From Ignavibacteriota bacterium (GTDB lineage: Bacteria; Bacteroidota; Ignavibacteria; UBA10030), in the NCBI GenBank assembly GCA_963701295.1, contig OY969585.1, forward strand, positions 3,552,001 to 3,616,000: 64,000 nt of DNA, given 5' to 3'. A program made the position numbers and the translations under genes. A model generated the notes under the pieces. It was not told the DNA's origin, ran no database searches, and saw nothing but the letters and a program-made list of their open reading frames with translations. Shown here piece after piece: positions 303-15,665 of this stretch (positions within the stretch are counted from its first letter, which is position 1; each line of letters starts with the position of its first letter).

Positions 303-350
303 TGTTATCCTCCTTTCGAAATTGGGTATTCTAATGCTCAGCATCGAGCG

Positions 351-507
351 GCCTAACGGATGGCAACTAAGCTGTCACGCTGAATATTTTCAATATACAC
401 AAAACGGAACAAGTTCATGTTGATAAGTTTATTATTAAACACAAAACCTCTACTCGCCATGCTTAACGTACCACGCTCATTTGGTCAGCTTGAGCCGATG
501 GTTAGGT
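351..507 (-). repeat. attC site (157 bp)
   Basis: GCCTAAC...TAAGCTG...CAGCTTGAG...GTTAGGT inverted R/L boxes, same pattern as the other six sites. Confidence 0.9.
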
Positions 508-712
508 TGCGTTTTGTTAATTTCCTTTTTATGTATATTTTTTGCCAACAACTACCTTTCATTTCTAAATAACGGCTAACAAAATGATGTCACGAATTTT
601 TGACTTCCTCCAATAAGCAAACAGAAACTGTCTATGAAGAAATGATGTCTCATGTGTAACAATTGTTTCTGCCGTTTAAGAAAGTTTATATATATCTTAT
701 TTAACATAGTAT

Positions 713-1693
713 TTATTCATTGAACACTTTAATAATCTTTGATACAGAATAAACAAAGAAATACCCAGCAGCTTTATTGGCAGGTTCAATGTTAGTCGGC
801 AGGTTTGTTGGTATTTTTAATTGGTCATATATATTATTATAATTAAATTCGTTGTTGCTAGTAGTATTGTTATCAAACTCTTTTAAAAATTCATATTGAT
901 CTTTATTAAAGTTAAGGCCAACAATACAGATAGTATCTCCTTCATTTATTATACTCATTTGCGGTTCTACCCAATAATCTACACGCCCATTTACAACTAA
1001 TCCAGGAGTATTCACCTTTTTAGTCTTATATTGAAATTCACGACTGGTAAGGTATCCACTTCCAAGTTCATCAGTTATAGTATAAAAACTTTTATTCTTT
1101 ACAATGACATAATAATATAAATAGTCTGGCCCATTATAAAATGTAGTATAATATCCACTATTCTTTACAGTACCTTCAATATTATCACCATTCATGCCAT
1201 AATAGGATGCCATTGAATCGAATCTAACCGGTACTGGCATCATCGTTTGAGCAGTATATATTTCATATTTTCCATCACCGTCAATATCAACATTAGAAAT
1301 ATTTAAAGTATATATATGCCCACCTATACCTCCAACTTTGCCTACTGTTTGATATAATCCAAGCGTGTCTTTATTTTCAATGTAATCAAATGTGTTTATG
1401 CCGTCAGTTACATATATTTTAGCGCCTGAAACAATTGTTTGGGGCCTGCCAGTGATAAGGCTGCCTGAACAATATAATCTAGTGCTGTGAACAATTGTAT
1501 CATTTGTAAATTCGCCATCAACCAGTAACCGTTTATCGTTTGTTTGAATTTCAATATTCATATCCTGTTCGCATGAACTGAAAAGAAAAGCTAATATTAA
1601 AAGACAGAAACAAAGAAGTATATTTTTAATAGGAATTATTCTTTCTGTATTGTAGATATATTTTTGAAACGTCATGTTGCGATACAGTATCAT
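713..1693 (-). CDS. DUF4249-type lipoprotein (cassette-borne partner of the TonB-dependent receptor)
   Basis: Lipobox-like FLFSSC, LLVDG motif, C-terminal PTNI...AGYF typical of DUF4249; follows a TBDR. Confidence 0.75.
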   Translation of the reverse strand: MILYRNMTFQKYIYNTERIIPIKNILLCFCLLILAFLFSSCEQDMNIEIQTNDKRLLVDGEFTNDTIVHSTRLYCSGSLITGRPQTIVSGAKIYVTDGINTFDYIENKDTLGLYQTVGKVGGIGGHIYTLNISNVDIDGDGKYEIYTAQTMMPVPVRFDSMASYYGMNGDNIEGTVKNSGYYTTFYNGPDYLYYYVIVKNKSFYTITDELGSGYLTSREFQYKTKKVNTPGLVVNGRVDYWVEPQMSIINEGDTICIVGLNFNKDQYEFLKEFDNNTTSNNEFNYNNIYDQLKIPTNLPTNIEPANKAAGYFFVYSVSKIIKVFNE

Positions 1694-1708
1694 AGAGTTT
1701 TTCGGAAA

Positions 1709-4090
1709 TTAAAAATTAAAACGATACGAAATAGACGGTACAAAACCTAACATAGATACACCTTTCGCATTGATAATGTTAGGATTATCTTGTGAAGTGA
1801 CAAAATCAACATATTGAATGTTGGCGTGGTTTAGAACATTGATAACGGAAATGTTCCATTCGCTATGATAGCGTTTGCCGGGAGTCTGTTCGCTTTTAAT
1901 GGTAAGGCTAATATCAAGCCTTTGATAGGTTGGTAAACGATAATCATTTCGATCAGAATATCCCGCTAATGTTTTGCCCCAGAGATTCATTATATAAATA
2001 GGAATAGTAGTAACCTGACCACTTTGATATCTGTAATTGGTTGAAACTGTTACTCGTTCTGAAATATTATAATTTAAGAACAAATCGAAGGTATGTGGCT
2101 TATCGAAAGGTGAAAGATAAGTTTGCCCGAAGTTAATATCGGGTATTGTACGAAAGCTTCGTGCATAGGTATAACTGACAAAACCATTTATTTTATCGAA
2201 ATTACTTTTTAGCATCAGTTCTGTACCATACGTGTAGCCACTGCCTGTTCGTAATTGTTCTTCAAAATTATAACTGGTTTTATTAATGGTATACATTGAG
2301 CTATTTTCCAGAAAGGTTGCACCGTCTTTATAATCAATAATATTGTTCATGTCTTTATAATAGCCCTCAATACTTGCTTCTAATAAATTATCTGAAAAAT
2401 ATTGTATATACCCTAGGCTGTATTGCGATGCTGTTTGTGGTTTTATATTATTGTCTGACGGAAACCAAATATCAAGAGGCCCTCCGCCATTTGTTTTCAT
2501 GAGCAATTGGTCTTGTTGGGTTGTGTATGTATAACTAGCTTTTAAGGATGAATTTTCAGATACCCTGTAATTAATGCCAAGCCTTGGTTCAACACTGTAC
2601 GAATTTGCATAGGTTTTGTTTTGGGCAACATAAAATGAATCGGCTACCTGATAATTCTGTAAATCATAAACCCAATGTCCACCGATATTTTGATATAAAC
2701 TTGCCCGTATACCATATTTAAAAGATAATGTTTCAGATATTTTTTGTTGGTTTGAAATATACAACGCATGATCGAAAACGCCTTGCTCAGAAACAACCCT
2801 ATTACTGAAAGGCTCTGATTGTGTAATGTTGTCAATGGCTGTTTCATTGCCTTCTAATTTACCGGGCATGAAATCCCTATAAGTCGTTGATGCACCAAAA
2901 TCAATTGTGTTATTGTTATCAGGATAATAATTATACTCAGCTTTCAGCGTAAATTGTTTAATCCCTGAGTTCCAACTATAATCTATAGAACCGTTGCCAT
3001 TGGAAGAATTATAAGCGTCAGAGTATTTGTAATTACTATATATAAAGGAAACATTGCTAAAAAGGTTTGGATTGTAAACATGATTCCAACGTGCAGACAT
3101 TGTGTTGTTATGATAATTAGCATTCAAACTTATCGTAGCATTGTCGTTACCAATGTATGAAGAAATATAAATGCGGTTTTTGCTGTCTAAAATTGCATTG
3201 AATTTACAATTTAGGTCGTAAAACGTTAAATCAACATTAGATTTTATGAGTTTATAAAGCCAGCTTAAATATGAAACCTTCCCCGATACAATAAAAGAAG
3301 CACGGTCATTAACAAGAGGCCCTTCAACACTTAAATCGGAACAAATAATTCCTAATCCTCCTGCCACGTTATAATTTTGCATGTTTCCATCTTTAAGCCT
3401 TATATCAACTATCGAGGACAAACGTCCTCCATAATTGGCTGGAATGTCGCCCTTGTAAATCCTTACATCGTTTACAGCATCATTATTAAATACGGAAAAA
3501 AAGCCCATCAAGTGCGAAATTTGAAATACAGGTGCATCATCGAGTAAAAAAAGGTTTTGGTCAATACTGCCTCCTCTTACACTAATTCCTGTACTCCTTT
3601 CATTTGCTCCCTGTATACCGGGCAATATTTGCAGCGAACGCATAACATCGGGCTCGCCCAGAAATACAGGTAATGCTTTTACATCATTATTTGTCATAGT
3701 CATTTGCCCCATTTGTGCTTGCGATAATTTGGCCTCGGGACTAGAACCGACAACCGTAACTTCACCTAATTTAATCGGCTGAGATGTGGCAAGTTTTATT
3801 ATTATGGTCGTGTCTTTACTTATTTTAAGGTTTATCGATTGGTCAACATAACCAAGGTAGTGTGCGAGAATTTTGCAGTCACCTTCATTTTGTGTGATGT
3901 TAAAGTATCCAAAAGCGTTTGTTGTGACACCTTTTTTGCTTACAGAATTTATTACATAACATCCTATTAAATTTTCACCACTTCCTTTATCTTGCACATA
4001 TCCATTTACAGAAAAAGTTTTTATGCTTTGCGAAAATACCGGCGAAAGAATAAAAAGAAAAATCAGGATTATATAGGTCTGTCTCATCAA
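1709..4090 (-). CDS. TonB-dependent receptor (CarboxypepD_reg N-terminus, plug, barrel), cassette-borne
   Basis: Signal peptide; TTNAFGYF; GEPDVMRSLQILPG; VRGGSIDQNL; YGGRLSS; C-terminal Phe. Confidence 0.92.
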   Translation of the reverse strand: MMRQTYIILIFLFILSPVFSQSIKTFSVNGYVQDKGSGENLIGCYVINSVSKKGVTTNAFGYFNITQNEGDCKILAHYLGYVDQSINLKISKDTTIIIKLATSQPIKLGEVTVVGSSPEAKLSQAQMGQMTMTNNDVKALPVFLGEPDVMRSLQILPGIQGANERSTGISVRGGSIDQNLFLLDDAPVFQISHLMGFFSVFNNDAVNDVRIYKGDIPANYGGRLSSIVDIRLKDGNMQNYNVAGGLGIICSDLSVEGPLVNDRASFIVSGKVSYLSWLYKLIKSNVDLTFYDLNCKFNAILDSKNRIYISSYIGNDNATISLNANYHNNTMSARWNHVYNPNLFSNVSFIYSNYKYSDAYNSSNGNGSIDYSWNSGIKQFTLKAEYNYYPDNNNTIDFGASTTYRDFMPGKLEGNETAIDNITQSEPFSNRVVSEQGVFDHALYISNQQKISETLSFKYGIRASLYQNIGGHWVYDLQNYQVADSFYVAQNKTYANSYSVEPRLGINYRVSENSSLKASYTYTTQQDQLLMKTNGGGPLDIWFPSDNNIKPQTASQYSLGYIQYFSDNLLEASIEGYYKDMNNIIDYKDGATFLENSSMYTINKTSYNFEEQLRTGSGYTYGTELMLKSNFDKINGFVSYTYARSFRTIPDINFGQTYLSPFDKPHTFDLFLNYNISERVTVSTNYRYQSGQVTTIPIYIMNLWGKTLAGYSDRNDYRLPTYQRLDISLTIKSEQTPGKRYHSEWNISVINVLNHANIQYVDFVTSQDNPNIINAKGVSMLGFVPSISYRFNF

Positions 4091-4424
4091 ATAATTTAAA
4101 TTTAAATTTAAATTTAACGGAGAATTTTTCTTTTTAGTATCAATAAAGCTTTAAATTTCATCGAAGTTCGGCTTGCACTTAACTATTTCAAAACGCAACC
4201 TAACGGATGGCAACTAAGCTGCGGCACTAAAAACCCTCAAGTTGCCGAAAACGAACCAAGTTTATTATAAAATATTTCAATCAATAATCCCTAAGCGCCA
4301 TGCGTAACATACAAACGCTCATACCGTCAGCTTGAGTTGCTGGATATTACCAAAAAGGAATCTCCCGATTATGTACATTGATAATTCTCTAGGTCACCAA
4401 CATCCACAATCTAAGGAGATTCCC

Positions 4425-5426
4425 ATGTATTACTCAGGTATCGATTTGCATTCTGATAATTGTTTTATCACCACTGTTGATGACACTGGTGCTGTCATCA
4501 AGCGACAACGTGTCGAGAATAACAATGAACGTGTTCTTGATTACTTCCACTCTCTGCCCGGTCCTCATCACGCAGTCGTTGAGTCTACCACAGGATGGTA
4601 CTGGCTCAACGATCTTCTCAGCGATCACGGCATCGAGCTTGTCCTTGCTCACGCCAAATATCTCAAAGCCATCAGTTATGCTAAAGTTAAAACAGATAAA
4701 GTCGATTCGCAAACTCTTGCTCTTCTCTTACGACAGGGACTCATTCCACGGGCTCACAAAATCAGCCGAGAACTACGCGGCCTGCGCGATACCATGCGTA
4801 TTCGTCTACGGCTCGTTCAGCAACGAACTGCCAGTCTTCTGCGTCTCTACAGTATTCAGACCAAATTTAACGGCTCTGTTCCGGATCCGTATCGTTTTCA
4901 ACTTGCTGTCTTGCAACATACCAGAGACACTTTTACTGCTCAGATCCTCTCGCTGGAAAAATCTCTCCATCCTGTGCTGATTCCCAACGACGATATTCAA
5001 CGGCTCTTGCACATTCCAGGTATCGGCAAGCTCACCGCATTCACGGTGTATCTTGAAATCGACGGCATTGAACGATTCGACTCCGATAAAAAGTTTGTCT
5101 CTTACTGCCGACTCGTCCCTGCTGCCGATAACTCCAATCGCTCTGTGCACCATCGCTCCAGCAAAGACGGCAATAAGTATCTCAAAATCGCCTTCTCCGA
5201 TGCCGCTGTTCATGCTATTCAGTACTATCCGGAATACAAACGCTTATTCCAGAAATTAGCTCGTCGCTCCAATGAGGCGACTGCGCGAACCGTCGTTGCC
5301 AAAGAACTTGCGAAGATTGTTTACTATGTCTTAAAAAACAAAACAATATATAAAGGTCTCAAAGGTCAGCCGATCAGCCGGCATAAATCTCAGCAGTGGC
5401 CGCGCCTCTCAAGCCCGCTTTCCTAA
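4425..5426 (+). CDS. IS110-family transposase/recombinase
   Basis: GIDLH, VVEST, KTDKVD (DEDD RuvC-like); IPGIG HhH; LVP..DNS..SKDGNKYL; RBS AAGGAG before ATG 4425. Confidence 0.95.
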   Translation: MYYSGIDLHSDNCFITTVDDTGAVIKRQRVENNNERVLDYFHSLPGPHHAVVESTTGWYWLNDLLSDHGIELVLAHAKYLKAISYAKVKTDKVDSQTLALLLRQGLIPRAHKISRELRGLRDTMRIRLRLVQQRTASLLRLYSIQTKFNGSVPDPYRFQLAVLQHTRDTFTAQILSLEKSLHPVLIPNDDIQRLLHIPGIGKLTAFTVYLEIDGIERFDSDKKFVSYCRLVPAADNSNRSVHHRSSKDGNKYLKIAFSDAAVHAIQYYPEYKRLFQKLARRSNEATARTVVAKELAKIVYYVLKNKTIYKGLKGQPISRHKSQQWPRLSSPLS

Positions 5427-5720
5427 CTGATCCCGACTGCGTCGGGATCGTTCGCTGGATTGGGAAGAGAGTGCGCTGTGCCGTGGTAATATCTGGAACA
5501 TCTCGCTCGACGAGATACGCTTTCACCATCGTTTCTTCAATGAGTGAATGTAAATCCGTAAACTGGTTTGGACGGCATTGCTCTGGTAATCGCCTGTCTA
5601 TTCGATAGAGAACGCGGCATCGGCACGGATTCGGTCGTCCTTAATGTTAAAGAACTCTGCATTCCGATTGCGCGGAACGCATCGGGAGTATATTATTTAC
5701 TTGACTCTTTCCTTTTTAAA
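5402..5720 (+). ncRNA. Putative bridge/seek RNA of the IS element (copy 1)
   Basis: Two predicted stem-internal-loop modules with segments matching the attC target (CCTAAC, GCTGG) and the donor junction (TGGTAATATC, TAAACTGG); ends are approximate. Confidence 0.75.
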
Positions 5721-5740
5721 CTGGTTATGTTGCAATTGTT

Positions 5741-7819
5741 TCATTTGAGCAAAACAAGTTTCTTCGTTTCAATAAATAAACCCACTTGTAAACGATAAAA
5801 GTAAATTCCGCTCGAAATAGTAGCCGCATTCCATTGACGTGCATGATTTCCTGTCGACATTTCTTCCGAAACCAGTGTTGCTACTTCTCTTCCTAAAATA
5901 TCAAACACCTTCAACGAGACAAAAGATCTATATGGAAGACTAAACGAAATAGTGGTCGACGGATTAAACGGATTAGGATAGTTTTGTTTAAGAGTGAAAT
6001 GCGTTGGTAAGTCGGTCGAATGTTTTACCACTGAAGTGATCACCTCCGACAACTGACGTCTCCAGACGCCGTCCCCAGTCCCTGCAAAAAGATTCGAATC
6101 GGATAAAGCAAGAGCTTGGACAAAATCGTTTGTTAATCCGGTATTGACTTGAGTCCAACTTGTACCATTGTTGGTAGAAAGAAAGACACCGTCATCCAAA
6201 GTTCCAGCAAAGAGAGTTGTACCGGATACAGCAAAAGCATTGATATAATTAGCGTAATTTCCTGTCAATCCTGAATTGACCGCAGTCCAGCTCGCGCCGT
6301 TGTTGGTAGAAAGAAATACACCACCGCCAGAAGTCCCTGCAAAAAGATTCTGGCCGGAAACTGCAAGAGCTAGAACGGTATCATTCGTCAATCCAGTGTT
6401 GACTTGAGTCCAATTTGTACCATTGTTAGTAGAAAGAAAAACGCCATAATAAGTCCCGGCAAAGAGATTCTGGCTGGAAACTGCAAGAGCTAGAACGGTA
6501 TCATTCGTCAATCCAGTGTTGACTTGAGTCCAATTTGTGCCATTGTTAGTAGAAAGAAAAACGCCATAATAAGTCCCGGCAAAGAGATTTGTTCCGGAAA
6601 GGGCAACAGTAGAGACATGAGTGTTCGTCGGTAACCCTGAATTAACAGCATTCCAGCTTGTACCGCTGTTGCTGGAACGAAAGACGCCATCCCTAGTCGC
6701 TGCAAAAAGATTCGAATCGGATAAAGTAAGAGCTTGAACAGTATCGTTCATCAATCCGTTATTGACTACAGTCCAGTTCGTGCCGTTGTTAGTCGAAAGA
6801 AAAACACCACCGCCTTGAGTCCCTGCAAATATTTTTTTATTGGAGATCGCGAGTGTTAAGACTTGAATATCTGTCAAGCTGGTATTAACATCAGTCCAAC
6901 TAATACCGCTATTGGTCGAAAGAAAGATGCCGGCGTCCCGAGTTCCTGCAAAGAGATTTGTACTGGAGACTACAAGAGCATTGACCCAATTGGACGTTAA
7001 GCCGCTATTAACCGCAGTCCAAGTCGTACCATTGGAAGTAGAAAGAAAGACACCTCCGTTCGGGTACGCAGCAAAGAGATTTGTGCCTGAGACTGCAAGA
7101 GCATTGACACCAGCATACTTTAAACCGGTGATGTCCCAGCCTGCGCCGTTATTGGTGGAAAGAAAAACGCCTCCGTTAGCTCCTGCAAAAAGATTTGTGT
7201 CGTAAGCGACAAAAGCATAGACATTAGTGTACGATAAACCGGTATTAACCCAACTTGTACCGTTGTTAGTGGAACGAAAGATACCACCAGAAGTTCCTGC
7301 AAAGAGATTCGTGTCAAAAGCGGCAAGTGTCCATACACAGGTATTCGTCACGCCGGTATTAACCCAACTTGTACCGTTATCACTGGAACGAAAGACGCCG
7401 CTCCAAGTCCCTGCAAAAAGATTCCCGCTAAATACTGTAAGAGCTGTAATAAAATTGTCTGTCAATCCGGAATTGACCGCAGTCCAGCTCATGCCGTTGT
7501 TAATAGAGAGAAAGACACCCCCGCCAGAAGTCCCTGCAAAGATATTCTTTCCAGAAACTGCAAGAGAAGAGACTTCATTATTTGTCAAGCCATTGCTCGC
7601 CGCAATCCAGCTTGTACCGTTATTGGTAGAGAGAATGACACCACCGTCCCAAGTTCCTACGAAGAGATTCGTGTCTGACACGGCAAAGCAAGTTACGTCG
7701 GAGCTACCGACTCCTTTGGTTTGGATCCATTGAGCACGCAATTGATTTGTAGTTGTGAAGAAAACCAATAATACAAAGAGAAATCTGCTAGAACGGACAA
7801 TTCGGAAAATATTTTTCAT
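5741..7819 (-). CDS. Secreted beta-propeller (BNR-like repeat) protein with T9SS/FlgD-type C-terminal domain, cassette-borne
   Basis: ~14 repeats of LFAGT.GGVFLSTNNG.SW; C-terminal QNYPNPFNP...KKLVLLK; signal peptide from ATG 7819. Confidence 0.85.
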   Translation of the reverse strand: MKNIFRIVRSSRFLFVLLVFFTTTNQLRAQWIQTKGVGSSDVTCFAVSDTNLFVGTWDGGVILSTNNGTSWIAASNGLTNNEVSSLAVSGKNIFAGTSGGGVFLSINNGMSWTAVNSGLTDNFITALTVFSGNLFAGTWSGVFRSSDNGTSWVNTGVTNTCVWTLAAFDTNLFAGTSGGIFRSTNNGTSWVNTGLSYTNVYAFVAYDTNLFAGANGGVFLSTNNGAGWDITGLKYAGVNALAVSGTNLFAAYPNGGVFLSTSNGTTWTAVNSGLTSNWVNALVVSSTNLFAGTRDAGIFLSTNSGISWTDVNTSLTDIQVLTLAISNKKIFAGTQGGGVFLSTNNGTNWTVVNNGLMNDTVQALTLSDSNLFAATRDGVFRSSNSGTSWNAVNSGLPTNTHVSTVALSGTNLFAGTYYGVFLSTNNGTNWTQVNTGLTNDTVLALAVSSQNLFAGTYYGVFLSTNNGTNWTQVNTGLTNDTVLALAVSGQNLFAGTSGGGVFLSTNNGASWTAVNSGLTGNYANYINAFAVSGTTLFAGTLDDGVFLSTNNGTSWTQVNTGLTNDFVQALALSDSNLFAGTGDGVWRRQLSEVITSVVKHSTDLPTHFTLKQNYPNPFNPSTTISFSLPYRSFVSLKVFDILGREVATLVSEEMSTGNHARQWNAATISSGIYFYRLQVGLFIETKKLVLLK
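6355..6589. repeat. Near-perfect 120-bp in-frame tandem duplication
   Basis: Lines at 6361/6481 and 6421/6541 are nearly identical. Confidence 0.9.
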
Positions 7820-7857
7820 ATGTTCATCTTTTGTGAAATGGTAAAATATCAATTGCA

Positions 7858-8011
7858 ACATAACGGACCGGCGCTAAGCTGCGGCGCTGATAATTTTCAA
7901 TATCTACTAAACGAAATGAGTTCATGCTGGTTCTTTCAAATTACACCAAGCCTTTGCGCGCCATGAATTTTGCACTACGCTCATTCCGTCAGCTTGAGCG
8001 CCTGGTTAGGG
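7858..8011 (-). repeat. attC site (154 bp)
   Basis: ACATAAC..GGCGCTAAGCTGCGG ... CCGTCAGCTTGAGCGCCTGGTTAGGG. Confidence 0.92.
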
Positions 8012-8023
8012 CGCAGCTACATA

Positions 8024-8052
8024 TTGACAATGTATACTCATTGTAGTATATT
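8024..8052 (+). promoter_or_regulatory. sigma70-type promoter of the TA operon with overlapping palindromic operator
   Basis: TTGACA (8024-8029)-17 bp-TATATT (8047-8052); IR ACAATG-N6-CATTGT at 8027-8044. Confidence 0.8.
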
Positions 8053-8057
8053 TACTT

Positions 8058-8339
8058 ATGAACATCATCTGGGATGAAGAGAAAAACAACAAACTAAAGA
8101 AAGAACGCCACATTTCGTTTGAAGAAATCGAATCATTAATATTGGCAAAGAAATATATAGAAATAGTGAAACATCCAAAACGTATTGGCCAGAGAGTTTT
8201 TATAATTCCAATTAAAGGATATGTACACGCTGTACCGTTCTTGTTAGATGATGACAACAATATTGTTTTGAAAACTGCGTTTCCAAGTCGGAAATTTCAT
8301 AAAAAATATGGACAAAAGAACAATGAAAACAAAACTTGA
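8058..8339 (+). CDS. BrnT-like type II toxin
   Basis: WDEEKN.KLK.ERHISFEEI; VPF...IVLKTAFPSRK; upstream of an RHH partner. Confidence 0.85.
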   Translation: MNIIWDEEKNNKLKKERHISFEEIESLILAKKYIEIVKHPKRIGQRVFIIPIKGYVHAVPFLLDDDNNIVLKTAFPSRKFHKKYGQKNNENKT

Positions 8340-8622
8340 TAAATACGAAAAAGAAATAGAACGATCCGCTAATTCCTACCATTCAGTATCGAAAAATGAG
8401 CGGAACAAAATAGAAGGCGTCTTAGATCGCATAAGAAAAACTAGAAACGTAAATATTCGCCTTTCTGAATCCGTCTTGGAACAACTGAAACGACGTTCCC
8501 GTGAAGAAGGAATCCCTTATCAGACACTTATTTCTAGTGTTTTGCATAAATTTGTTACCGATCGTCTTATAGACGAAGCCGCTATAAGAAAGTCTGTACG
8601 ACTGCTTCATTCTGCCCAATAG
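8323..8622 (+). CDS. CopG/BrnA-like RHH antitoxin
   Basis: VNIRLS...EGIPYQTLISSVLH; overlaps the toxin. Confidence 0.85.
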   Translation: MKTKLDKYEKEIERSANSYHSVSKNERNKIEGVLDRIRKTRNVNIRLSESVLEQLKRRSREEGIPYQTLISSVLHKFVTDRLIDEAAIRKSVRLLHSAQ

Positions 8623-8662
8623 CCCCACAATAACTTCAGTTAATATTGGATTATGCTGCGCT

Positions 8663-8861
8663 GCCTAACGGATGGCAACTAAGCTGACGCACTGATAACT
8701 TTCAAAATGTACTGAACGAAACTGGATTTCATGCTGAATACAAAATTAATTAATACTAAAGTTATGAAGTACAATAAACGTATTAATAAAAACGATAACC
8801 CACCACCAGCCATGCGCAACGTACCCGGCTGGCAACCGTCAGCTTGAGCGCCTGGTTAGGC
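8663..8861 (-). repeat. attC site (199 bp)
   Basis: GCCTAAC...TAAGCTGACG ... CCGTCAGCTTGAGCGCCTGGTTAGGC. Confidence 0.9.
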
Positions 8862-8892
8862 AGCATCCATCGATCAACCGCCAGCGAGGTGT

Positions 8893-9888
8893 TCATGGCT
8901 GCGCGAGAAACCGTCGAATGGCATCAGCCACTTTTATGGAGTCCGACAAAAATACATAATGGTTATTTACTTGATAGTTTGTCTGCTTAAGTTCCAATAT
9001 TTCACCGTTACGCATCTCACGTCGAAAGCGCGCACGCTCGGTTGATAAATAATCGATAGCCCACTGCCCATAAATCGTCGTCGTTCGGCGTTCAGTGGAA
9101 TCCATTTGCGCCCACCTAGAAGGCAAAACAATGAATTCGGGTGACTCACACATCCGATAAATGGCGAGTGCTGGTGCTGAAACCTGCGAGTATGGCGGAT
9201 GCTCCGATCCCCGAAGGAAAACCACGGTGAACGAATCAGGTGTAACATCGCGCTCAATCTTGCCACTTGCATCGAAAACGTACCAAGTTCGTATTTCTGC
9301 CTCAGGCAGCGGATACCCTTTGGCTGCCCAAAAAGCCCGAACAGCTCCCGGTGATGCGGAATCAGCTGCTGTCATGGGTTTGGATTTTACAAATTTAGGT
9401 TGGTTGAGCTGAGCCGTGTGATCGTATGCGGCATCCAGATAAACGAGTCGGCGAACGCGGCTCGGGAAGCGGGCGGCAAGACCGGTAAGTTCGCCTCCTG
9501 CAATTGAATGACCAATGAAGGAAGCACGCGCCACACCTAATGAATCGAGCAGTGACACGAGATCTTTAATCCGTGTCTCAATATCGTATCCGTATGCTGT
9601 CTGGCTCGAGGCGCCAAACCCACGGCGTGTCACTGCCATCACATGGAAGTGGTCTCTGAACTGTGGCGCGAAATCGTCGTAGACATGGGCGGAGAGTCCA
9701 AGACCGGAGAGGAAAATCAATGTATCTCCTCGTCCTCCCCAATCAAGCACTTCCAAGCGTACGTTCGGTGCGACCGTAACAAACTGTATACGATGCGGCG
9801 ATGGATCCGTCCAAGTCTGTGGTGTCGCAGACTGAACAAGAGCGATCAGCAGAACGAAGACTAAGCCACTAATTTTATGTGTATTCAT
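8893..9888 (-). CDS. Secreted alpha/beta hydrolase, cassette-borne
   Basis: Signal peptide; LEVLDWGG; RRGFG.S; GHSIAG nucleophile elbow. Confidence 0.88.
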   Translation of the reverse strand: MNTHKISGLVFVLLIALVQSATPQTWTDPSPHRIQFVTVAPNVRLEVLDWGGRGDTLIFLSGLGLSAHVYDDFAPQFRDHFHVMAVTRRGFGASSQTAYGYDIETRIKDLVSLLDSLGVARASFIGHSIAGGELTGLAARFPSRVRRLVYLDAAYDHTAQLNQPKFVKSKPMTAADSASPGAVRAFWAAKGYPLPEAEIRTWYVFDASGKIERDVTPDSFTVVFLRGSEHPPYSQVSAPALAIYRMCESPEFIVLPSRWAQMDSTERRTTTIYGQWAIDYLSTERARFRREMRNGEILELKQTNYQVNNHYVFLSDSIKVADAIRRFLAQP

Positions 9889-9938
9889 TGTATCCTCCGT
9901 GAAATTGGTTTGGGATCAAATCTGTTCATTGCGTTGCA

Positions 9939-10125
9939 GCCTAACGGAACGGCGCTAAGCTGCGGCGCTGATAAGTTTCATAATGCAACCAACGAAACAG
10001 GTTCATGATACTATCTTTCAATTAAACACAAAACCTATGCTCGCCATGCTTAACGTACCCATTTACCCGCCATGCTTTATCTTTGGGCGGGCGCTCATTC
10101 CGTCAGCTTGAGCGCCTGGTTAGGG
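9939..10125 (-). repeat. attC site (187 bp, with an extra internal hairpin)
   Basis: GCCTAAC..GGCGCTAAGCTGCGG ... CCGTCAGCTTGAGCGCCTGGTTAGGG. Confidence 0.9.
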
Positions 10126-10133
10126 CGCATTTA

Positions 10134-10592
10134 TTATTTCTCGACTGTTTCGTTCGGTTTAATCCCGGGAGATATTGTCCTAAAATTAAAATCTTTAAAT
10201 CTCAGAACCTTTTGTCCGAGGTCTTTCCTAATCGCTAAGATAATTGATCGAATTATATTATCCTGTTGTTCAATGGAATAATCGTCCCCTCGGTGAGTAC
10301 CAATGTAATCAAGAAGATCATGCACTTTCTCCAAGACCTCACGGCTTGCAATAAGATTCATCAAATTGACTGAGTTCGCAAGTTTCCGATGCGCTTCATA
10401 GGATTTATAAATACTTCCCATTTCGGAAAAACCAGACAGGAAATCCATATATCGGTCAAGTTTGAATTTAAGTTCCTGCAATTTTATTTCTCGTCTACGA
10501 TTGAGAAATTGACCGATGACAGCCGCAATTAATGTGGCAAGAGCACCGATGATTGCTACTAAAAGCACATGATTATTTGATGTTGATTCCAT
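10134..10592 (-). CDS. Hypothetical cassette protein with N-terminal TM helix
   Basis: 152-aa ORF filling the space between two attC sites. Confidence 0.75.
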   Translation of the reverse strand: MESTSNNHVLLVAIIGALATLIAAVIGQFLNRRREIKLQELKFKLDRYMDFLSGFSEMGSIYKSYEAHRKLANSVNLMNLIASREVLEKVHDLLDYIGTHRGDDYSIEQQDNIIRSIILAIRKDLGQKVLRFKDFNFRTISPGIKPNETVEK

Positions 10593-10829
10593 ATGAAATG
10601 CGCCCTAACGGATGGCAACTAAGCTGCGGCACTAAAAACCCTCAAGTTGCCGAAAACGAACCAAGTTTATTATAAAATATTTCAATCAATAATCCCTAAG
10701 CGCCATGCGTAACATACAAACGCTCATTCCGTCAGCTTGAGTTGCTGGATATTACCAAAAAGGAATCTCCCGATTATGTACATTGATAATTCTCTAGGTC
10801 ACCAACATCCACAATCTAAGGAGATTCCC

Positions 10830-11831
10830 ATGTATTACTCAGGTATCGATTTGCATTCTGATAATTGTTTTATCACCACTGTTGATGACACTGGTGCTGT
10901 CATCAAGCGACAACGTGTCGAGAATAACAATGAACGTGTTCTTGATTACTTCCACTCTCTGCCCGGTCCTCATCACGCAGTCGTTGAGTCTACCACAGGA
11001 TGGTACTGGCTCAACGATCTTCTCAGCGATCACGGCATCGAGCTTGTCCTTGCTCACGCCAAATATCTCAAAGCCATCAGTTATGCTAAAGTTAAAACAG
11101 ATAAAGTCGATTCGCAAACTCTTGCTCTTCTCTTACGACAGGGACTCATTCCACGGGCTCACAAAATCAGCCGAGAACTACGCGGCCTGCGCGATACCAT
11201 GCGTATTCGTCTACGGCTCGTTCAGCAACGAACTGCCAGTCTTCTGCGTCTCTACAGTATTCAGACCAAATTTAACGGCTCTGTTCCGGATCCGTATCGT
11301 TTTCAACTTGCTGTCTTGCAACATACCAGAGACACTTTTACTGCTCAGATCCTCTCGCTGGAAAAATCTCTCCATCCTGTGCTGATTCCCAACGACGATA
11401 TTCAACGGCTCTTGCACATTCCAGGTATCGGCAAGCTCACCGCATTCACGGTGTATCTTGAAATCGACGGCATTGAACGATTCGACTCCGATAAAAAGTT
11501 TGTCTCTTACTGCCGACTCGTCCCTGCTGCCGATAACTCCAATCGCTCTGTGCACCATCGCTCCAGCAAAGACGGCAATAAGTATCTCAAAATCGCCTTC
11601 TCCGATGCCGCTGTTCATGCTATTCAGTACTATCCGGAATACAAACGCTTATTCCAGAAATTAGCTCGTCGCTCCAATGAGGCGACTGCGCGAACCGTCG
11701 TTGCCAAAGAACTTGCGAAGATTGTTTACTATGTCTTAAAAAACAAAACAATATATAAAGGTCTCAAAGGTCAGCCGATCAGCCGGCATAAATCTCAGCA
11801 GTGGCCGCGCCTCTCAAGCCCGCTTTCCTAA
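10830..11831 (+). CDS. IS110-family transposase/recombinase
   Basis: Protein identical to 4425-5426. Confidence 0.95.
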   Translation: MYYSGIDLHSDNCFITTVDDTGAVIKRQRVENNNERVLDYFHSLPGPHHAVVESTTGWYWLNDLLSDHGIELVLAHAKYLKAISYAKVKTDKVDSQTLALLLRQGLIPRAHKISRELRGLRDTMRIRLRLVQQRTASLLRLYSIQTKFNGSVPDPYRFQLAVLQHTRDTFTAQILSLEKSLHPVLIPNDDIQRLLHIPGIGKLTAFTVYLEIDGIERFDSDKKFVSYCRLVPAADNSNRSVHHRSSKDGNKYLKIAFSDAAVHAIQYYPEYKRLFQKLARRSNEATARTVVAKELAKIVYYVLKNKTIYKGLKGQPISRHKSQQWPRLSSPLS

Positions 11832-12125
11832 CTGATCCCGACTGCGTCGGGATCGTTCGCTGGATTGGGAAGAGAGTGCGCTGTGCCGTGGTAATATCTG
11901 GAACATCTCGCTCGACGAGATACGCTTTCACCATCGTTTCTTCAATGAGTGAATGTAAATCCGTAAACTGGTTTGGACGGCATTGCTCTGGTAATCGCCT
12001 GTCTATTCGATAGAGAACGCGGCATCGGCACGGATTCGGTCGTCCTTAATGTTAAAGAACTCTGCATTCCGATTGCGCGGAACGCATCGGGAGTATATTA
12101 TTTACTTGACTCTTTCCTTTTTAAA
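11807..12125 (+). ncRNA. Putative bridge/seek RNA (copy 2)
   Basis: Same sequence as 5402-5720. Confidence 0.75.
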
Positions 12126-12161
12126 CTGGTTAGGTGCTGTGCCCAGCATTTGCCCGTTATT

Positions 12162-12581
12162 TTATACTCTGAAATCATAGGATTTAAAGTTTTCATACAT
12201 CCTGCAAACTTTAGTCGTAAATTTTAATACACAGTAATCTGGATCGGTTATTCCCTTTGAATAATATATTGTATCACCATCTCGCCAAATTCTATCTTTT
12301 GTAGGTTGATCTTGCAATACTTCCATAAAACCTTTTAACATAATTCCGCGAAAAGAACTACTATCATAGAAATAAATAGAAGCTTTGGAATTCTTCATGT
12401 ATTGTTTCACACGCACCGACGATGTATTGGTAGTAAAATAAAATATTTTTAAACCGTCATTTTCTCTTGGTTTTAACATGGCTTTCAAATTCGGAAACCC
12501 ATCTTCATCAACAGATGAAATAATTGTATTACTACTTTTTCCAACAATAGATAAACCTTTTTTTATTAAGTCTTCATTCAA
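12162..12581 (-). CDS. Pyridoxamine 5'-phosphate oxidase-like FMN-binding protein (general stress protein 26 type)
   Basis: SSVDEDGFP..KAM; YFTTNTSS; YYSKGITDPDYCVLKF. Confidence 0.85.
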   Translation of the reverse strand: MNEDLIKKGLSIVGKSSNTIISSVDEDGFPNLKAMLKPRENDGLKIFYFTTNTSSVRVKQYMKNSKASIYFYDSSSFRGIMLKGFMEVLQDQPTKDRIWRDGDTIYYSKGITDPDYCVLKFTTKVCRMYENFKSYDFRV

Positions 12582-12616
12582 TGAATATCTCCTTTTTATA
12601 TTTATGATTGCACAGC

Positions 12617-12814
12617 ACCTAACGGATCGGCGCTAAGCTGCGGCAACGATAACACGCAAGTTGCTGAAAACGAAACAAGTTCATGCTGACAACCAAATTA
12701 AATATTTCCCAACCAACGAGGTACTGAAAAGTTAATTATAAAAACCTAAACCCGCCACAAGCCATGCTCTAAAGTACTCGGGCTCATTCCGTCAGCTTGA
12801 GCGCCTGGTTAGGC
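12617..12814 (-). repeat. attC site (198 bp)
   Basis: ACCTAAC..GGCGCTAAGCTGCGG ... CCGTCAGCTTGAGCGCCTGGTTAGGC. Confidence 0.92.
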
Positions 12815-14705: not shown

Positions 14706-15665
14706 ATGGCCGAACAAAAGTTGTTAGATCGCGTCCGCGATTGCATACGAACCAAACACCTCAGCATTCGCACCGAAGAAGTCTATCTCAATTGGATCAA
14801 ACGTTACATCCTCTTTCATCAAAAGAAGCATCCTCGTGAATTGCGGGAACCGCACATTGAACAATTTCTCACTTCCCTGGCAGTGGATAGCCAGGTCTCT
14901 GCTTCCACACAAAATCAAGCACTGAATGCCATCTTGTTTCTCTATCGCGAAGTGCTTCATATAAAGATCGGGGACATGAATGAAATTATCAGGGCAAAGA
15001 GAACTCAGCGTATCCCTGTCGTCTTTACGAAAAAGGAGATTGAATCTATCCTGCAATATCTCCACGGATCACAAAGACTGATCTGTGCCCTGCTCTACGG
15101 CAGCGGCATGCGCCTGCTCGAATGTCATCGACTGCGCATAAAAGACATCGACTTTCTCAGAAAACAAATCATCGTACGCGAAGGAAAAGGAGAAAAAGAC
15201 CGCATAACGATTCTTCCTGCATCGCTTCTTACGCACCTCGAACATCAAATCGCTAAAGTGAAACTCCTGCATCAAGAAGATAAAACCGATGGCTATGGCG
15301 ATGTATATTTACCGGATGCCATCCGCATAAAATTTCCGCGGGCTGCAAAAGAATTACTATGGCAATATGTATTCCCCTCTTCAAGGCGTTCGATGGATCC
15401 GCTAACAGGAGCCGTCCAACGGCACCATATTGATGAAAGTGTTGTGCAACGCGCTTTTAAAACAGCGTTACAAAAATCCAAAGTGAGAAAAGCAGGAACA
15501 ATACACTCCTTGCGTCACTCATTCGCAACACATCTCTTAGAAGATGGGCACGACATCCGCACCGTCCAGGAATTATTAGGGCACAAAGATGTTAGGACTA
15601 CGATGATCTACACTCACGTCCTGAACAAAAAAGGTCTCACCGTCCGAAGCCCGCTGGATACATAA
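14706..15665 (+). CDS. intI: Integron integrase
   Basis: Tyrosine recombinase R-H-R-H-Y motifs ([25 protein letters not shown]) plus the IntI-specific insertion (VYLPDA..KFPRA..WQYVFPS); divergent from the cassette array. Confidence 0.97.

Follow-up and report, generated by a model that had tools for sequence, protein, structure and literature searches.

An IS110-family insertion sequence of IS1111 layout at integron attC sites in Ignavibacteria, with a predicted bridge/seek RNA downstream of its transposase gene

The window (the whole stretch of DNA that was analysed, 64,000 nucleotides) contains two copies of an insertion sequence (IS), each interrupting an attC site to the left of an integron integrase gene. 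Copy 1 spans positions 4344-5724 (+ strand; 1,381 bp), with a boundary made ambiguous by a shared TGG, and copy 2 lies in another attC at 10749-12129 (+ strand), at an offset of 6405. The element sequence is identical in the two copies, and the single mismatch between them falls in the attC flank. Copy 1 and its surroundings hold the following features (a slash within a sequence marks the point of insertion).

4193-4343, + strand: body of the interrupted attC, forming the left target flank; member of an nhmmer repeat family of ~175 copies, of which empty ones continue ...CTGG/TTAGG
4344-4351, + strand: left terminal extension ATATTACC, whose first 6 bases are the predicted partner of the donor 5' guide
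4352-4360, + strand: left subterminal inverted repeat AAAAAGGAA, with its reverse complement at 5709-5717
4425-5426, + strand: transposase gene, 333 amino acids, with DEDD and Transposase_20 domains (Pfam PF01548, PF02371)
5701-5706, + strand: TTGACT, a conserved -35-like hexamer 18 nt before the right end
5709-5724, + strand: right subterminal repeat TTCCTTTTT, then the extension AAA, then CTGG
5725-5734, + strand: right target flank TTATGTTGCA, the remainder of the attC R'' box (the cassette strand reads GCAACATAA)
14706-15665, + strand: integron integrase gene, with the cassette array diverging from it to the left (TIGR02249, 453.4 bits against a cut-off of 265)

The transposase matches PF01548 (N-terminal DEDD, RuvC-like; E = 1.8e-16) and PF02371 (C-terminal Transposase_20; E = 5.7e-18), and it scores 169.8 bits against NCBIfam NF033542, "IS110 family RNA-guided transposase" (cut-off, 140), which bears out the assignment to the IS110-family RNA-guided recombinases made from the bare sequence. 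The noncoding sequence downstream of the gene (298 nt, 5427-5724), conserved throughout, is longer than that upstream (81 nt, 4344-4424), as fits the IS1111 layout. The subterminal repeat AAAAAGGAA/TTCCTTTTT is 9 bp long, with an 8-nt extension on the left and AAA plus NTGG on the right. For the IS1111 subgroup, PMC11187229 gives subterminal inverted repeats of 11-13 bp with extensions of 7 bp (left) and 3 bp (right), and PMC11208160 gives repeats of 7-17 bp.

Matches to the transposase occur in 13 of the 86 genomes of the family, and 4011 related metagenome proteins were found at E<=1e-30. Among 72,556 plasmid records the best match reached 34.5% identity, and membership in the monophyletic proteobacterial IS1111-attC clade (ISPst6, ISPa21) is therefore unlikely. 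IS5075-family plasmid genes were 22% identical over 92% of the query. A match on a Klebsiella plasmid (H5) was considered as a candidate ISKpn4 and rejected, as it does not lie in an integron.

The interrupted repeat belongs to a family of ~150-nt units in ~10 clusters or arrays, and the window holds seven such attC sites at 347-12808, left of the integrase gene. Its low end carries the R' complement GCAACCTAAC, followed by the L-box arm ...GTCAGCTTGAG and then TTG-CTGG, and the box ends have the attC form RYYYAAC ... GTTRRRY. Between the arms CCGGCGCTAAGCTGCGG and CCGTCAGCTTGAGCGCCTGG, pairing is interrupted by bulges; the DNA fold of the whole site, computed for one attC, is no better than that of shuffles (z = 0.26). 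Unoccupied copies read ...NCTGG/TTAGG..., and among 129 empty right ends CTGG/TTA is present in 93, TGG/TTA in 107, and the strict form G/TTRRRY in 67. Arrayed repeats, empty sites, and an adjoining integrase gene above its cut-off all agree with the view of the sequence-only reading that the target is an integron attC. The cassette open reading frames and the attC sense are on the - strand, so that the transposase, on the + strand, is antisense to the cassettes.

The genome carries 11 full copies of the IS, with 100% identical transposases in 9. All 11 occupy the same attC position in the ~150-nt repeat and have junctions in common: the left junction reads ...NCTGG/ATATTACC (two diverged copies instead have TTAG on the left), and the right junction follows the pattern TTTTTAAA(C, A or G)TGG/TTAGG. 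Copy 1 itself has the right flank G/TTATGT, and the remaining eight of the nine near-identical copies have G/TTAGG. Empty sites hold one NCTGG only; the copies thus sit without a scar at a single point of their integron attC sites. The first base of CTGG at the right junction belongs to the element, being C, A, or G in relatives and matched there by the predicted donor guide; the 4-nt CTGG core proposed earlier is accordingly too long, and the alignments point to a shared core of TGG at most in this element and of 1-2 nt family-wide.

The insertion cuts the R'' box off from the remaining attC sequence, and the interrupted site presumably no longer folds for the integrase. The likely effect of the element on these large arrays is that cassettes are frozen or fused. 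Degenerate right-end footprints of the element are seen in the arrays, a trait shared with the IS1111-attC group, whose footprints in arrays were reportedly described by Tetu and Holmes in 2008.

Joining of the element ends would place GATATT 17 nt after TTGACT (5701-5706), and by analogy with ISEc11 (PMC11187229) the two may form a junction promoter; a promoter and terminator scan gave nothing above chance level.

The sequence-only reading had placed a bridge or seek RNA with a target loop (loop 1) and a donor loop (loop 2) at the 3' end of the element. The features predicted for it are as follows.

5402-5476, + strand: predicted target-binding stem-loop, with outer helix 5402-5410/5467-5476, CCC/GGG helix 5414-5416/5462-5464, and inner hairpin 5429-5449
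5421-5427, + strand: predicted target 5' guide (U)CCUAAC, which complements the top-strand G+TTAGG(N) of the attC R'' end and holds the transposase stop
5453-5458, + strand: predicted target 3' guide (C)GCUGG, in the same sense as the left flank ...GCTGG
5459-5460, + strand: AU after the target 3' guide, a putative handshake with the left end AT
5487-5493, + strand: predicted donor 5' guide UAAUAUC, complementary to the left-end G+ATATTA (with a match that extends to 5484 in this lineage)
5494-5558, + strand: predicted inner donor domain, with closing helix UGGA 5494-5497/UCCG 5555-5558 and hairpins at 5500-5516 and about 5522-5548
5560-5566, + strand: predicted donor 3' guide AAACUGG, in the same sense as the right end AAACTGG
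5567-5568, + strand: UU after the donor 3' guide, a putative handshake with the right flank TT
5604-5619, + strand: distal strand GAUA...CGGCA, with CGGCA (5615-5619) as candidate partner of UGCCG (5479-5483) and GAUA at 5604-5607

All strings named in that reading are present where it had placed them, including CCTAAC (5422-5427) and GCTGG (5454-5458). The outer stem of the target loop is formed by GCGCCTCTC (5402-5410) with GAGAG-T-GCGC (5467-5476), and the arms GATCCCGAC/GTCGGGATC make up the inner hairpin (5429-5449). CCUAAC, the complement of the top strand, lies 5' of GCUGG, which has the top-strand sense, an order that fits the IS1111 subgroup. As a complement of the attC R'' sequence GTTAGG, CCTAAC agrees with the flanks of the other eight of the nine near-identical copies; since copy 1 is itself flanked by G/TTATGT, the match there is limited to five of six positions. 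As regards GCUGG, a G at position -1 in the element's own genome is more frequent at occupied sites (8 of 9) than at empty sites (32 of 93; P = 0.002 by Fisher's test). The overlap of the target loop with the end of the gene also holds: the first helix and guide cover the last eight codons and the stop, with TAA (5424-5426) inside CCTAAC.

We evaluated the predicted structure by single-sequence folding and by covariation among relatives. The alignments (A1 to A3) left out L008 and L017 (large insertions in both loops and a TGA in the gene) and the truncated L019; L029, near-identical to L030, was also left out of A2 and A3. Single-sequence folds, with modest z-scores of -2.7 and -1.7, reproduced loop 1 as drawn earlier, with the TGCCGT/ACGGCA stem of loop 2 absent. 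Over all helices, 93.1% of cells were paired and 20 of 33 pairs had changed on both sides; none of 500 shuffles reached this, and slid controls were 34-44% paired. The outer helix of the target loop was paired in 100% of cells, with 6 of its 9 pairs altered on both sides, and the inner hairpin in 85.7%; RNAalifold predicted the same target-loop helices. In the donor loop, the closing helix was 100% paired (among 45 lineages scored, its third pair is A-U in 30, G-C in 12, and U-A in 2), and each of the six pairs of the first hairpin (5500-5516) had changed on both sides. Covariation thus supports the predicted helices around the target loop as well as those bordering the donor loop on its inner side. 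An Rfam scan of 4000-6200 at E<=1 found no family.

The outer closure of the donor loop may differ from the one first proposed. The local stem TGCCGT (5479-5484)/ACGGCA (5572-5577) was paired in 79.5% of cells, with its central pair in 3 of 14 sequences, versus 92.9% for the distal helix of UGCCG with CGGCA (5615-5619). The distal helix was scored on the 14-sequence alignment A3 and by a pattern-based count, the 51-sequence A2 having been misaligned there by MAFFT between clades. In that count, 43 lineages were scored, of which 17 had five of five standard pairs and 26 had four of five; the other 8 of the 51 comprised 4 unparsed at the 5' strand and 4 without the distal GGC. RNAalifold picks both distal helices. 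The alignments therefore make CGGCA (5615-5619) the better-supported candidate partner of UGCCG, ahead of the local ACGGCA; in all, GCC (5480-5482) could pair with any of three GGC strings, one upstream at 5398-5400, the local one at 5574-5576, and the distal one at 5616-5618.

The donor guide strings are TGGTAATATC (5484-5493) and TAAACTGG (5559-5566). Within the 64-kb window, GATATTACCA and TAAACTGGTT occur four times each, only at the element end and in the RNA region of the two copies; 0.13 and 0.14 occurrences are expected by chance, and none of 100 shuffles reached four. It is hardly credible that the matches are coincidental and the repeat something other than an attC. Target matches of 5-6 nt are weak by themselves and the attC DNA folds no better than shuffles, but this reading is opposed by the 10-mer counts, the covariation, the integrase gene adjoining the array, and the 175 arrayed repeats with RYYYAAC/GTTRRRY-type ends.

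We compared each predicted guide with its partner in 84 distinct insertions from Ignavibacteria relatives, with 10,000 shuffles per guide. The target 5' guide matched the right flank at 395 of 552 positions (shuffled mean, 350.6), and the target 3' guide matched the left flank at 455 of 750 (358.8). For the element ends, the donor 3' guide agreed with the right end at 489 of 690 positions (388.4) and the donor 5' guide with the left end at 470 of 657 (444.4). No shuffle out of 10,000 was as high as the observed value for any of the four guides, in tests that ignore the relatedness of the loci; these fall into two main clades, so that independent events are far fewer than 84. With one row per distinct guide, the corresponding numbers of shuffles were 0, 0, 0, and 11 of 10,000 (target 5', target 3', donor 3', and donor 5', respectively). 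Thus, the guide-like strings picked out earlier covary with target flanks and element ends, and four segments of the predicted RNA track the two flanks and the two ends.

This tracking includes natural reprogramming, with an ACAUAAC lineage found beside TTATGTG flanks and a sister ACCUAAC lineage beside TTAGGTG. Many relatives at 52-56% identity show one or two guide/flank mismatches (for example, GUCUAAC beside TTATA), and the conserved length of each guide is only about 7 nt. For the donor 3' guide, agreement with the right end at each of the last seven positions ranges from 56 to 68 of 69 insertions, and the fourth base from the end is C, A, or G on both sides, in agreement in 67 of 69. The string and the right end vary together through at least seven sequences (AAACTGG, AAAATGG, AAAGTGG, AAAGAGG, AAAGATG, TAAGCGG, and AATGGTG). 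The donor 5' guide matches the left end at positions 1 to 6 in 50-73 of 73 insertions, with A/T covariation at position 6 (68 of 73). Positions 7 to 9 match in 18, 14, and 31 of 73, which speaks against the 10-nt left-end guide of the sequence-only reading. Both donor strings follow the element ends around an inner helix that covaries, with three candidate partners for the outer closure.

The proposed handshake bases (2+2 nt) match in this copy. In the target loop, the RNA and left-end bases are AT/AT in 66 of 75 insertions, AA/AT in 8, and TA/AT in 1, the pair thus being broken in 9 of 75 without a change in the left end; in the donor loop, TT/TT is found in 67 of 69, with both sides near-invariant. 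These bases lie in near-invariant motifs and are no more than candidate handshake pairs.

A largely cis-regulatory role for the 3' region in the transposase mRNA (a structure overlapping the stop codon, a stabiliser, or a terminator), with the matches as by-products of repeats, is very improbable. The overlap with the last eight codons and the stop and the conservation of the 298-nt region would be in keeping with such a role. It leaves unexplained, however, why loop bases track flanking host DNA that is not part of the element, and the terminator and promoter scans gave nothing above chance.

Perhaps a more serious alternative, though an unlikely one in our judgement, is a seekRNA that directs target choice only: loop 1 would pick the target, and the transposase would recognise the ends by way of their subterminal inverted repeats. 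The end-like strings of loop 2 would in that case have another role, for example in folding, processing, or regulation, or as a DNA-level binding site. An 82-nt seekRNA lacking the donor loop was enough for ISEc11 to transpose, and that study proposes a different recognition of ends in IS1111 (PMC11187229); elements of this subgroup may therefore not need a donor loop. The element has a 9-bp subterminal repeat, its donor outer closure is not conserved as first drawn, and UAUC of the donor 5' guide, itself invariant, can pair within the RNA with the complementary, invariant GAUA (5604-5607). Against these points stand the donor 3' string, which follows the right end through all its variants at each of the last seven positions, the A/T covariation of the donor 5' string with left-end position 6, and the placement of both strings around a covariation-supported helix, in the same geometry as in loop 1.

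We regard it as probable, with good confidence, that this IS110-family element of IS1111 layout encodes in its 3' region a bridge/seek RNA that chooses the fixed point of attC by base-pairing. By analogy with IS621, ISEc11, and ISKpn4, the RNA would likely share a transcript with the transposase gene, the stop codon of which falls within the first guide, and would then be trimmed and bound by the transposase. Target-loop (U)CCUAAC would bind G-TTAGG(N) on the top strand, and (N)GCUGG the strand opposite (N)GCTGG. On the donor side, the left end would be read through pairing of UAAUAUC to G-ATATTA and the right end through pairing of AAACUGG to its bottom strand, presumably on the joined ends of an excised circle, and strand exchange would take place within the short shared GG/TGG.

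It is also conceivable, albeit rather doubtful, that the element represents a separate, nonproteobacterial lineage of bridge-RNA IS that is specialised on chromosomal-integron attC sites, with guides retuned to local attC variants and an RNA that carries a decoy of its own left end. Here, the invariant GAUA...GGCA (5604-5619) would pair with the donor 5' guide and the flanking UGCC, holding the donor loop closed until real left-end DNA displaced the decoy. To our knowledge, a self-masking switch of this kind has not been described for bridge RNAs.

The predicted system extends RNA-guided, attC-targeting IS110/IS1111 elements to Ignavibacteria, where they are abundant. From the natural series of retuned guides, one can read how long a working guide is (about 7 nt) and how short the core is, and the series bears on whether IS1111-type elements use a donor loop, as the donor strings here keep pace with both ends across many changes. 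In terms of integron biology, the consequence lies in attC sites broken at the R'' box and in the footprints left behind.

Elements of the IS1111 type that target attC and use seekRNAs have already been published (ISKpn4, ISPst6); the mechanism is a known one, with a member new to Ignavibacteria. According to PMC11187229, the seekRNA of IS1111 elements is found 3' of tnp, its match to the top strand precedes the one to the bottom strand, both matches overlap in the target, and attC is the target of ISKpn4 and ISPst6; PMC11208160 predicts IS1111 bridge RNAs in the right end. The present element resembles the IS1111-attC group (ISPst6, ISPa21, ISKpn4, and also ISPa25) in this predicted RNA arrangement, in its DEDD transposase and long downstream noncoding region, and in an insertion point that is fixed close to the R'' (5') end of attC, with an orientation antisense to the cassettes (PMC3001079). 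It differs in its host (Ignavibacteria, not Proteobacteria), in having its own ~150-nt attC family with its own consensus, and in a 9-bp subterminal repeat with an 8-nt left extension, versus the usual 11-13 bp and 7 nt. With ISEc11 and ISPa11, also of the IS1111 family, it shares subterminal inverted repeats, a likely joined-end promoter, and an RNA on the 3' side, predicted in the present case, whereas their targets are a linear site and REP, respectively. A 4-bp terminal repeat of ISEc11 has been reassigned to the element itself (PMC11187229), the same ambiguity as that of CTGG here. Compared with the IS621 bridge RNA, the predicted RNA likewise has two loops, each with two guides of ~7 nt on opposite strands around a short core, and, just after the second guide on its 3' side, bases matching the other partner (handshake guides; PMC11208158). 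Unlike in IS621, however, it lies 3' and not 5' of the gene, and its strand matches come in the opposite order; GG/TGG, not CT, forms the core, and the 5' guides reach only its last base. The donor domain also differs, with two hairpins and a closing helix that is ambiguous among partners, and the handshake bases, for which covariation has been demonstrated across IS110 orthologues, are near-invariant in this element and its relatives.

The element encodes a protein with the domains DEDD_Tnp_IS110 and Transposase_20, which scores 169.8 bits (cut-off, 140) against NCBIfam NF033542, "IS110 family RNA-guided transposase," in agreement with the IS110-family recombinase proposed in a sequence-only reading of this DNA. 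The strings on which that reading relied were all found in place by a direct sequence check, and the target loop of its proposed bridge/seek RNA does overlap the transposase stop codon.

4425-5426: transposase open reading frame, with its TAA stop (5424-5426) inside CCTAAC (5422-5427)
4352-4360 and 5709-5717: 9-bp subterminal inverted repeat

The genome (3.64 Mb, one contig) holds 11 full copies of the element, nine near-identical (DNA, 97.9 to 100%; proteins, 100% identical) and two diverged (DNA, 82 to 83%; protein, 89% identity). The second copy in the window is offset 6405 bases rightward, and identity between the two copies runs from ~4191-4200 to ~5727. In all nine near-identical copies, the left flank ends in NCTGG and continues into ATATTACC, and TTTTTAAACTGG is followed on the right by TTAGG, but by TTATG in copy 1. 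From these common junctions, we place the element at 4344-5724 (1381 bp), with a boundary that is ambiguous by the shared bases. Its noncoding parts measure 81 nt upstream and 298 nt downstream of the transposase gene. Each of the 10-mers GATATTACCA and TAAACTGGTT has four occurrences in the 64-kb window, only at one element end and in the RNA region of both copies (chance expectation, 0.13 and 0.14; 0 of 100 shuffles reach four). All lineages keep the motif TTGACT at a distance of 18 nt from the right end, and joined ends (5701-5724 plus 4344-4349) would put GATATT 17 nt after it; together they likely form a circle-junction promoter, predicted by analogy with the kind known for ISEc11.

The 150 nt to the left of the element is also found without it; the repeat has some 175 copies, which form about ten clusters (iterated nhmmer, own genome). 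Among the 140 attC-like repeats with an intact right end, 11 are occupied and 129 empty. The empty ends read CTGG/TTA in 93 of 129 cases, TGG/TTA in 107, and strictly G/TTRRRY in 67 (slash, insertion point), and the opposite end of the repeat is GCAACCTAAC. In the window, seven repeats lie to the left of an integrase gene, between open reading frames that are all on the minus strand.

14706-15665, plus strand: integron integrase (TIGR02249, 453.4 bits; cut-off, 265)
347-501, 4193-4343, 7852-8005, 8659-8855, 9935-10119, 10597-10748 and 12617-12808: attC copies

An integrase divergent from the cassette array is the usual arrangement of integrons. The window holds a complete chromosomal integron, with the plus-strand integrase divergent from a minus-strand cassette array. 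The arrayed repeats, their CTGG/TTA empty ends and the adjacent integrase bear out attC as the target. As the cassette open reading frames are on the minus strand, the element occupies, in the cassette sense, the 5′ (R″) end of attC, where it lies between CCTAA and CCAG, and its transposase gene runs antisense to the cassettes. Some of the "cassettes" are very long; between one pair of attC sites, for example, lie a TonB-dependent receptor and a DUF4249 gene. The cassette gene adjoining the element (5741-7861, minus strand) encodes a 706-amino-acid protein with BNR/sortilin repeats and a type IX secretion sorting tail, and its internal ~120-nt repeats are the window's other repeat families. 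Along the genome, attC orientation changes with position: below 2.5 Mb almost all sites are on the minus strand, above 2.76 Mb on the plus strand (exceptions at 694112, 1046235, 1405407/1405971 and 3450236), which suggests a link to replication direction.

The element's relatives belong to Ignavibacteria/Ignavibacteriota MAGs. Matches were found in 13 of 86 genomes of the same family, and 80 loci came from scanning species-representative genomes. Together they comprise a close group (72 to 91% protein identity) and a second clade (52 to 56%), and both keep the RNA architecture and attC-like left flanks (GTC[AG]GCTTGA). Once duplicates were removed, the table held 84 distinct insertions; missing values were left missing, so each test has its own n. 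Two loci of one relative's genome, L008 and L017, were excluded from the RNA alignments as decayed or variant elements: both of their RNA loops contain insertions of 33 to 60 nt, and their transposase gene has an in-frame TGA.

Across these homologues, the proposed covariation between guides and DNA partners was recovered for all four guides, with a significance that is overstated, since the shuffles ignore the relatedness of the insertions.

Matches between guides and DNA partners (observed; shuffled; shuffles of 10000 reaching the observed count with all rows, then with one row per distinct guide)
Target 5′ guide (reverse complement), right flank: 395/552; 350.6±7.7; 0; 0
Target 3′ guide, left flank: 455/750; 358.8±10.4; 0; 0
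Donor 3′ guide, right end: 489/690; 388.4±7.9; 0; 0
Donor 5′ guide, left end: 470/657; 444.4±4.2; 0; 11

Individual lineages show the same tracking. Lineages with G-CCUAAC are flanked by GTTAGG-C and one with C-CCUAAC by GTTAGG-G, and the UUCUAAC guide of another lies beside GTTAGAA. Within one genome, ACAUAAC copies are mostly at TTATGTG and their ACCUAAC sister is at TTAGGTG. Guides ending in C-CUGG are found at C-CTGG sites and those ending in G-CUGG at G-CTGG sites; in the own genome, G precedes CTGG at 8 of 9 occupied versus 32 of 93 empty canonical sites (P = 0.002 by a one-sided Fisher test). The donor 3′ string follows the right end through AAACTGG, AAAATGG, AAAGTGG, AAAGAGG, AAAGATG, TAAGCGG and AATGGTG. 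Counting against guide tracking are the one or two guide/flank mismatches in many members of the distant clade (e.g., GUCUAAC by TTATA) and the two diverged copies of the own genome, described below. The target 5′ guide reaches over the last core G and six flank bases (the next positions agree in 25/69 and 16/69), the target 3′ guide over about its last six bases, the donor 3′ guide over its last seven and the donor 5′ guide over G+ATATT(A/T). The 10-nt match to the left end noted earlier is present here; it is particular to this lineage, as positions 7 to 9 match in only 18, 14 and 31 of 73 insertions.

RNA structure was scored on an alignment of 14 close relatives, over the target-loop outer helix, the CCC/GGG helix and the inner hairpin on the target side and the inner closing helix, first hairpin and distal closing helix on the donor side. 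Overall, pairing held in 93.1% of cells, and both sides had changed in 20 of the 33 pairs, a result reached by 0 of 500 shuffles (slid controls, 34 to 44% paired). In the target-loop outer helix, every cell was paired (100%) and six pairs covaried. The donor stem TGCCGT/ACGGCA of the sequence-only reading fared poorly (79.5% paired; central C-G in 3 of 14 sequences). A distal helix, UGCCG 5479-5483/CGGCA 5615-5619, was 92.9% paired, includes the doubly compensated variant GGCCA/TGGCC and is picked by RNAalifold without a supplied structure. In a pattern-based count (51 lineages, 43 scorable), it had five of five standard pairs in 17 and four of five in 26. RNAalifold also pairs UAUC (5490-5493), an invariant part of the donor 5′ guide, with an invariant GAUA (5604-5607) that lies ~110 nt downstream; the counterpart of this second strand in the distant clade, GAUAUU..GGCA, nearly duplicates the left-end DNA. 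At the third pair of the donor inner helix, 45 rows were scored: 30 have A-U, 12 G-C and 2 U-A, and one was misparsed. In an alternative model, GCC 5480-5482 could pair with GGC 5398-5400, lengthening the first helix; all bases involved are invariant. Conservation extends well beyond 5580, where the RNA region had been thought to end.

The proposed 4-nt CTGG core did not hold across insertions. The base before TGG on the left is always C and belongs to the target, whereas on the right it is an element base, C, A or G, with which the donor guide agrees in 67 of 69 insertions. In the 24 close-relative insertions, the end of the left flank has a run of 4 nt (12 cases), 3 nt (11) or 1 nt (1) in common with the right end; for all 69, the run is 2 nt (32 cases), 1 nt (13), 3 nt (12) or 4 nt (12). 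With the common run mostly shorter and the right-hand base variable, the 4-nt core arises in this lineage by coincidence. Exchange here spans at most TGG and, by analogy with the dinucleotide core of IS621 (PMC11208160), probably the last two bases.

In copy 1, AU follows GCUGG and the left end starts with AT, and UU follows AAACUGG and the right flank starts with TT; this topology matches the IS621 handshake guides (PMC11208158). The target-loop pair is AT/AT in 66, AA/AT in 8 and TA/AT in 1 of 75 insertions, and in the donor loop TT/TT accounts for 67 of 69. Because the RNA bases lie within near-invariant AUUGGG and UUUGG motifs and their DNA partners hardly vary, covariation is uninformative and the handshake pairs are only possible, putative ones; the second base of the target-loop pair is not needed.

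L029 and L030, the two diverged copies in this genome, share an identical ~75-nt left flank with TTAG in place of CTGG at the junction. Their target guide is CCUCAC, whereby the stop codon is lost, and neither guide nor junction has a fitting partner; in one of them, the right end is GTGG versus AUGG in the guide. They are probably immobile relics or moved jointly with their flank. Solo right-end fragments (only the last 55 to 80 nt of the element) beside a TTAGG flank occur in at least six places, and in two of these the front part of an attC directly adjoins the fragment; they look like footprints left when earlier insertions were deleted.

Contig 2396474-2397760 (L029) and 2408629-2410051 (L030): diverged copies, 89% protein identity
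Contig 1810043-1810108, 2382018-2382075, 2384968-2385033, 2396271-2396366, 3157459-3157523 and 3333530-3333607: solo right-end fragments

Several features recall known systems. The longer downstream noncoding part matches the IS1111 layout of PMC11187229 and PMC11208160, and the presence of a subterminal repeat is in keeping with it, this one having 9 bp against 11 to 13 bp in the former and 7 to 17 bp in the latter. A bridge RNA was predicted in the right end for 93% of IS1111 elements (PMC11208160). ISPa21 and ISPst6, IS1111-attC elements of Proteobacteria, are reported at the same position and in the same orientation in attC (PMC3001079), and integrons have been recorded previously in Ignavibacteria/Ignavibacteriota (PMC9024848). 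For the attC-targeting ISKpn4 and ISPst6, seekRNAs copurified with the transposases, and the same matches were predicted for ISPa25 (PMC11187229). A limited full-text search on bridge RNA/attC and Ignavibacteria integrons found no account of this Ignavibacteria attC-targeting family, and the nearest protein among 72,556 plasmid records had 34.5% identity (IS5075-family genes, 22%). Given the published attC seekRNA elements, this low best identity and the lack of a prior description in that search, the element is a new and distant member of the already known kind of attC-targeting, RNA-guided IS1111-type element.
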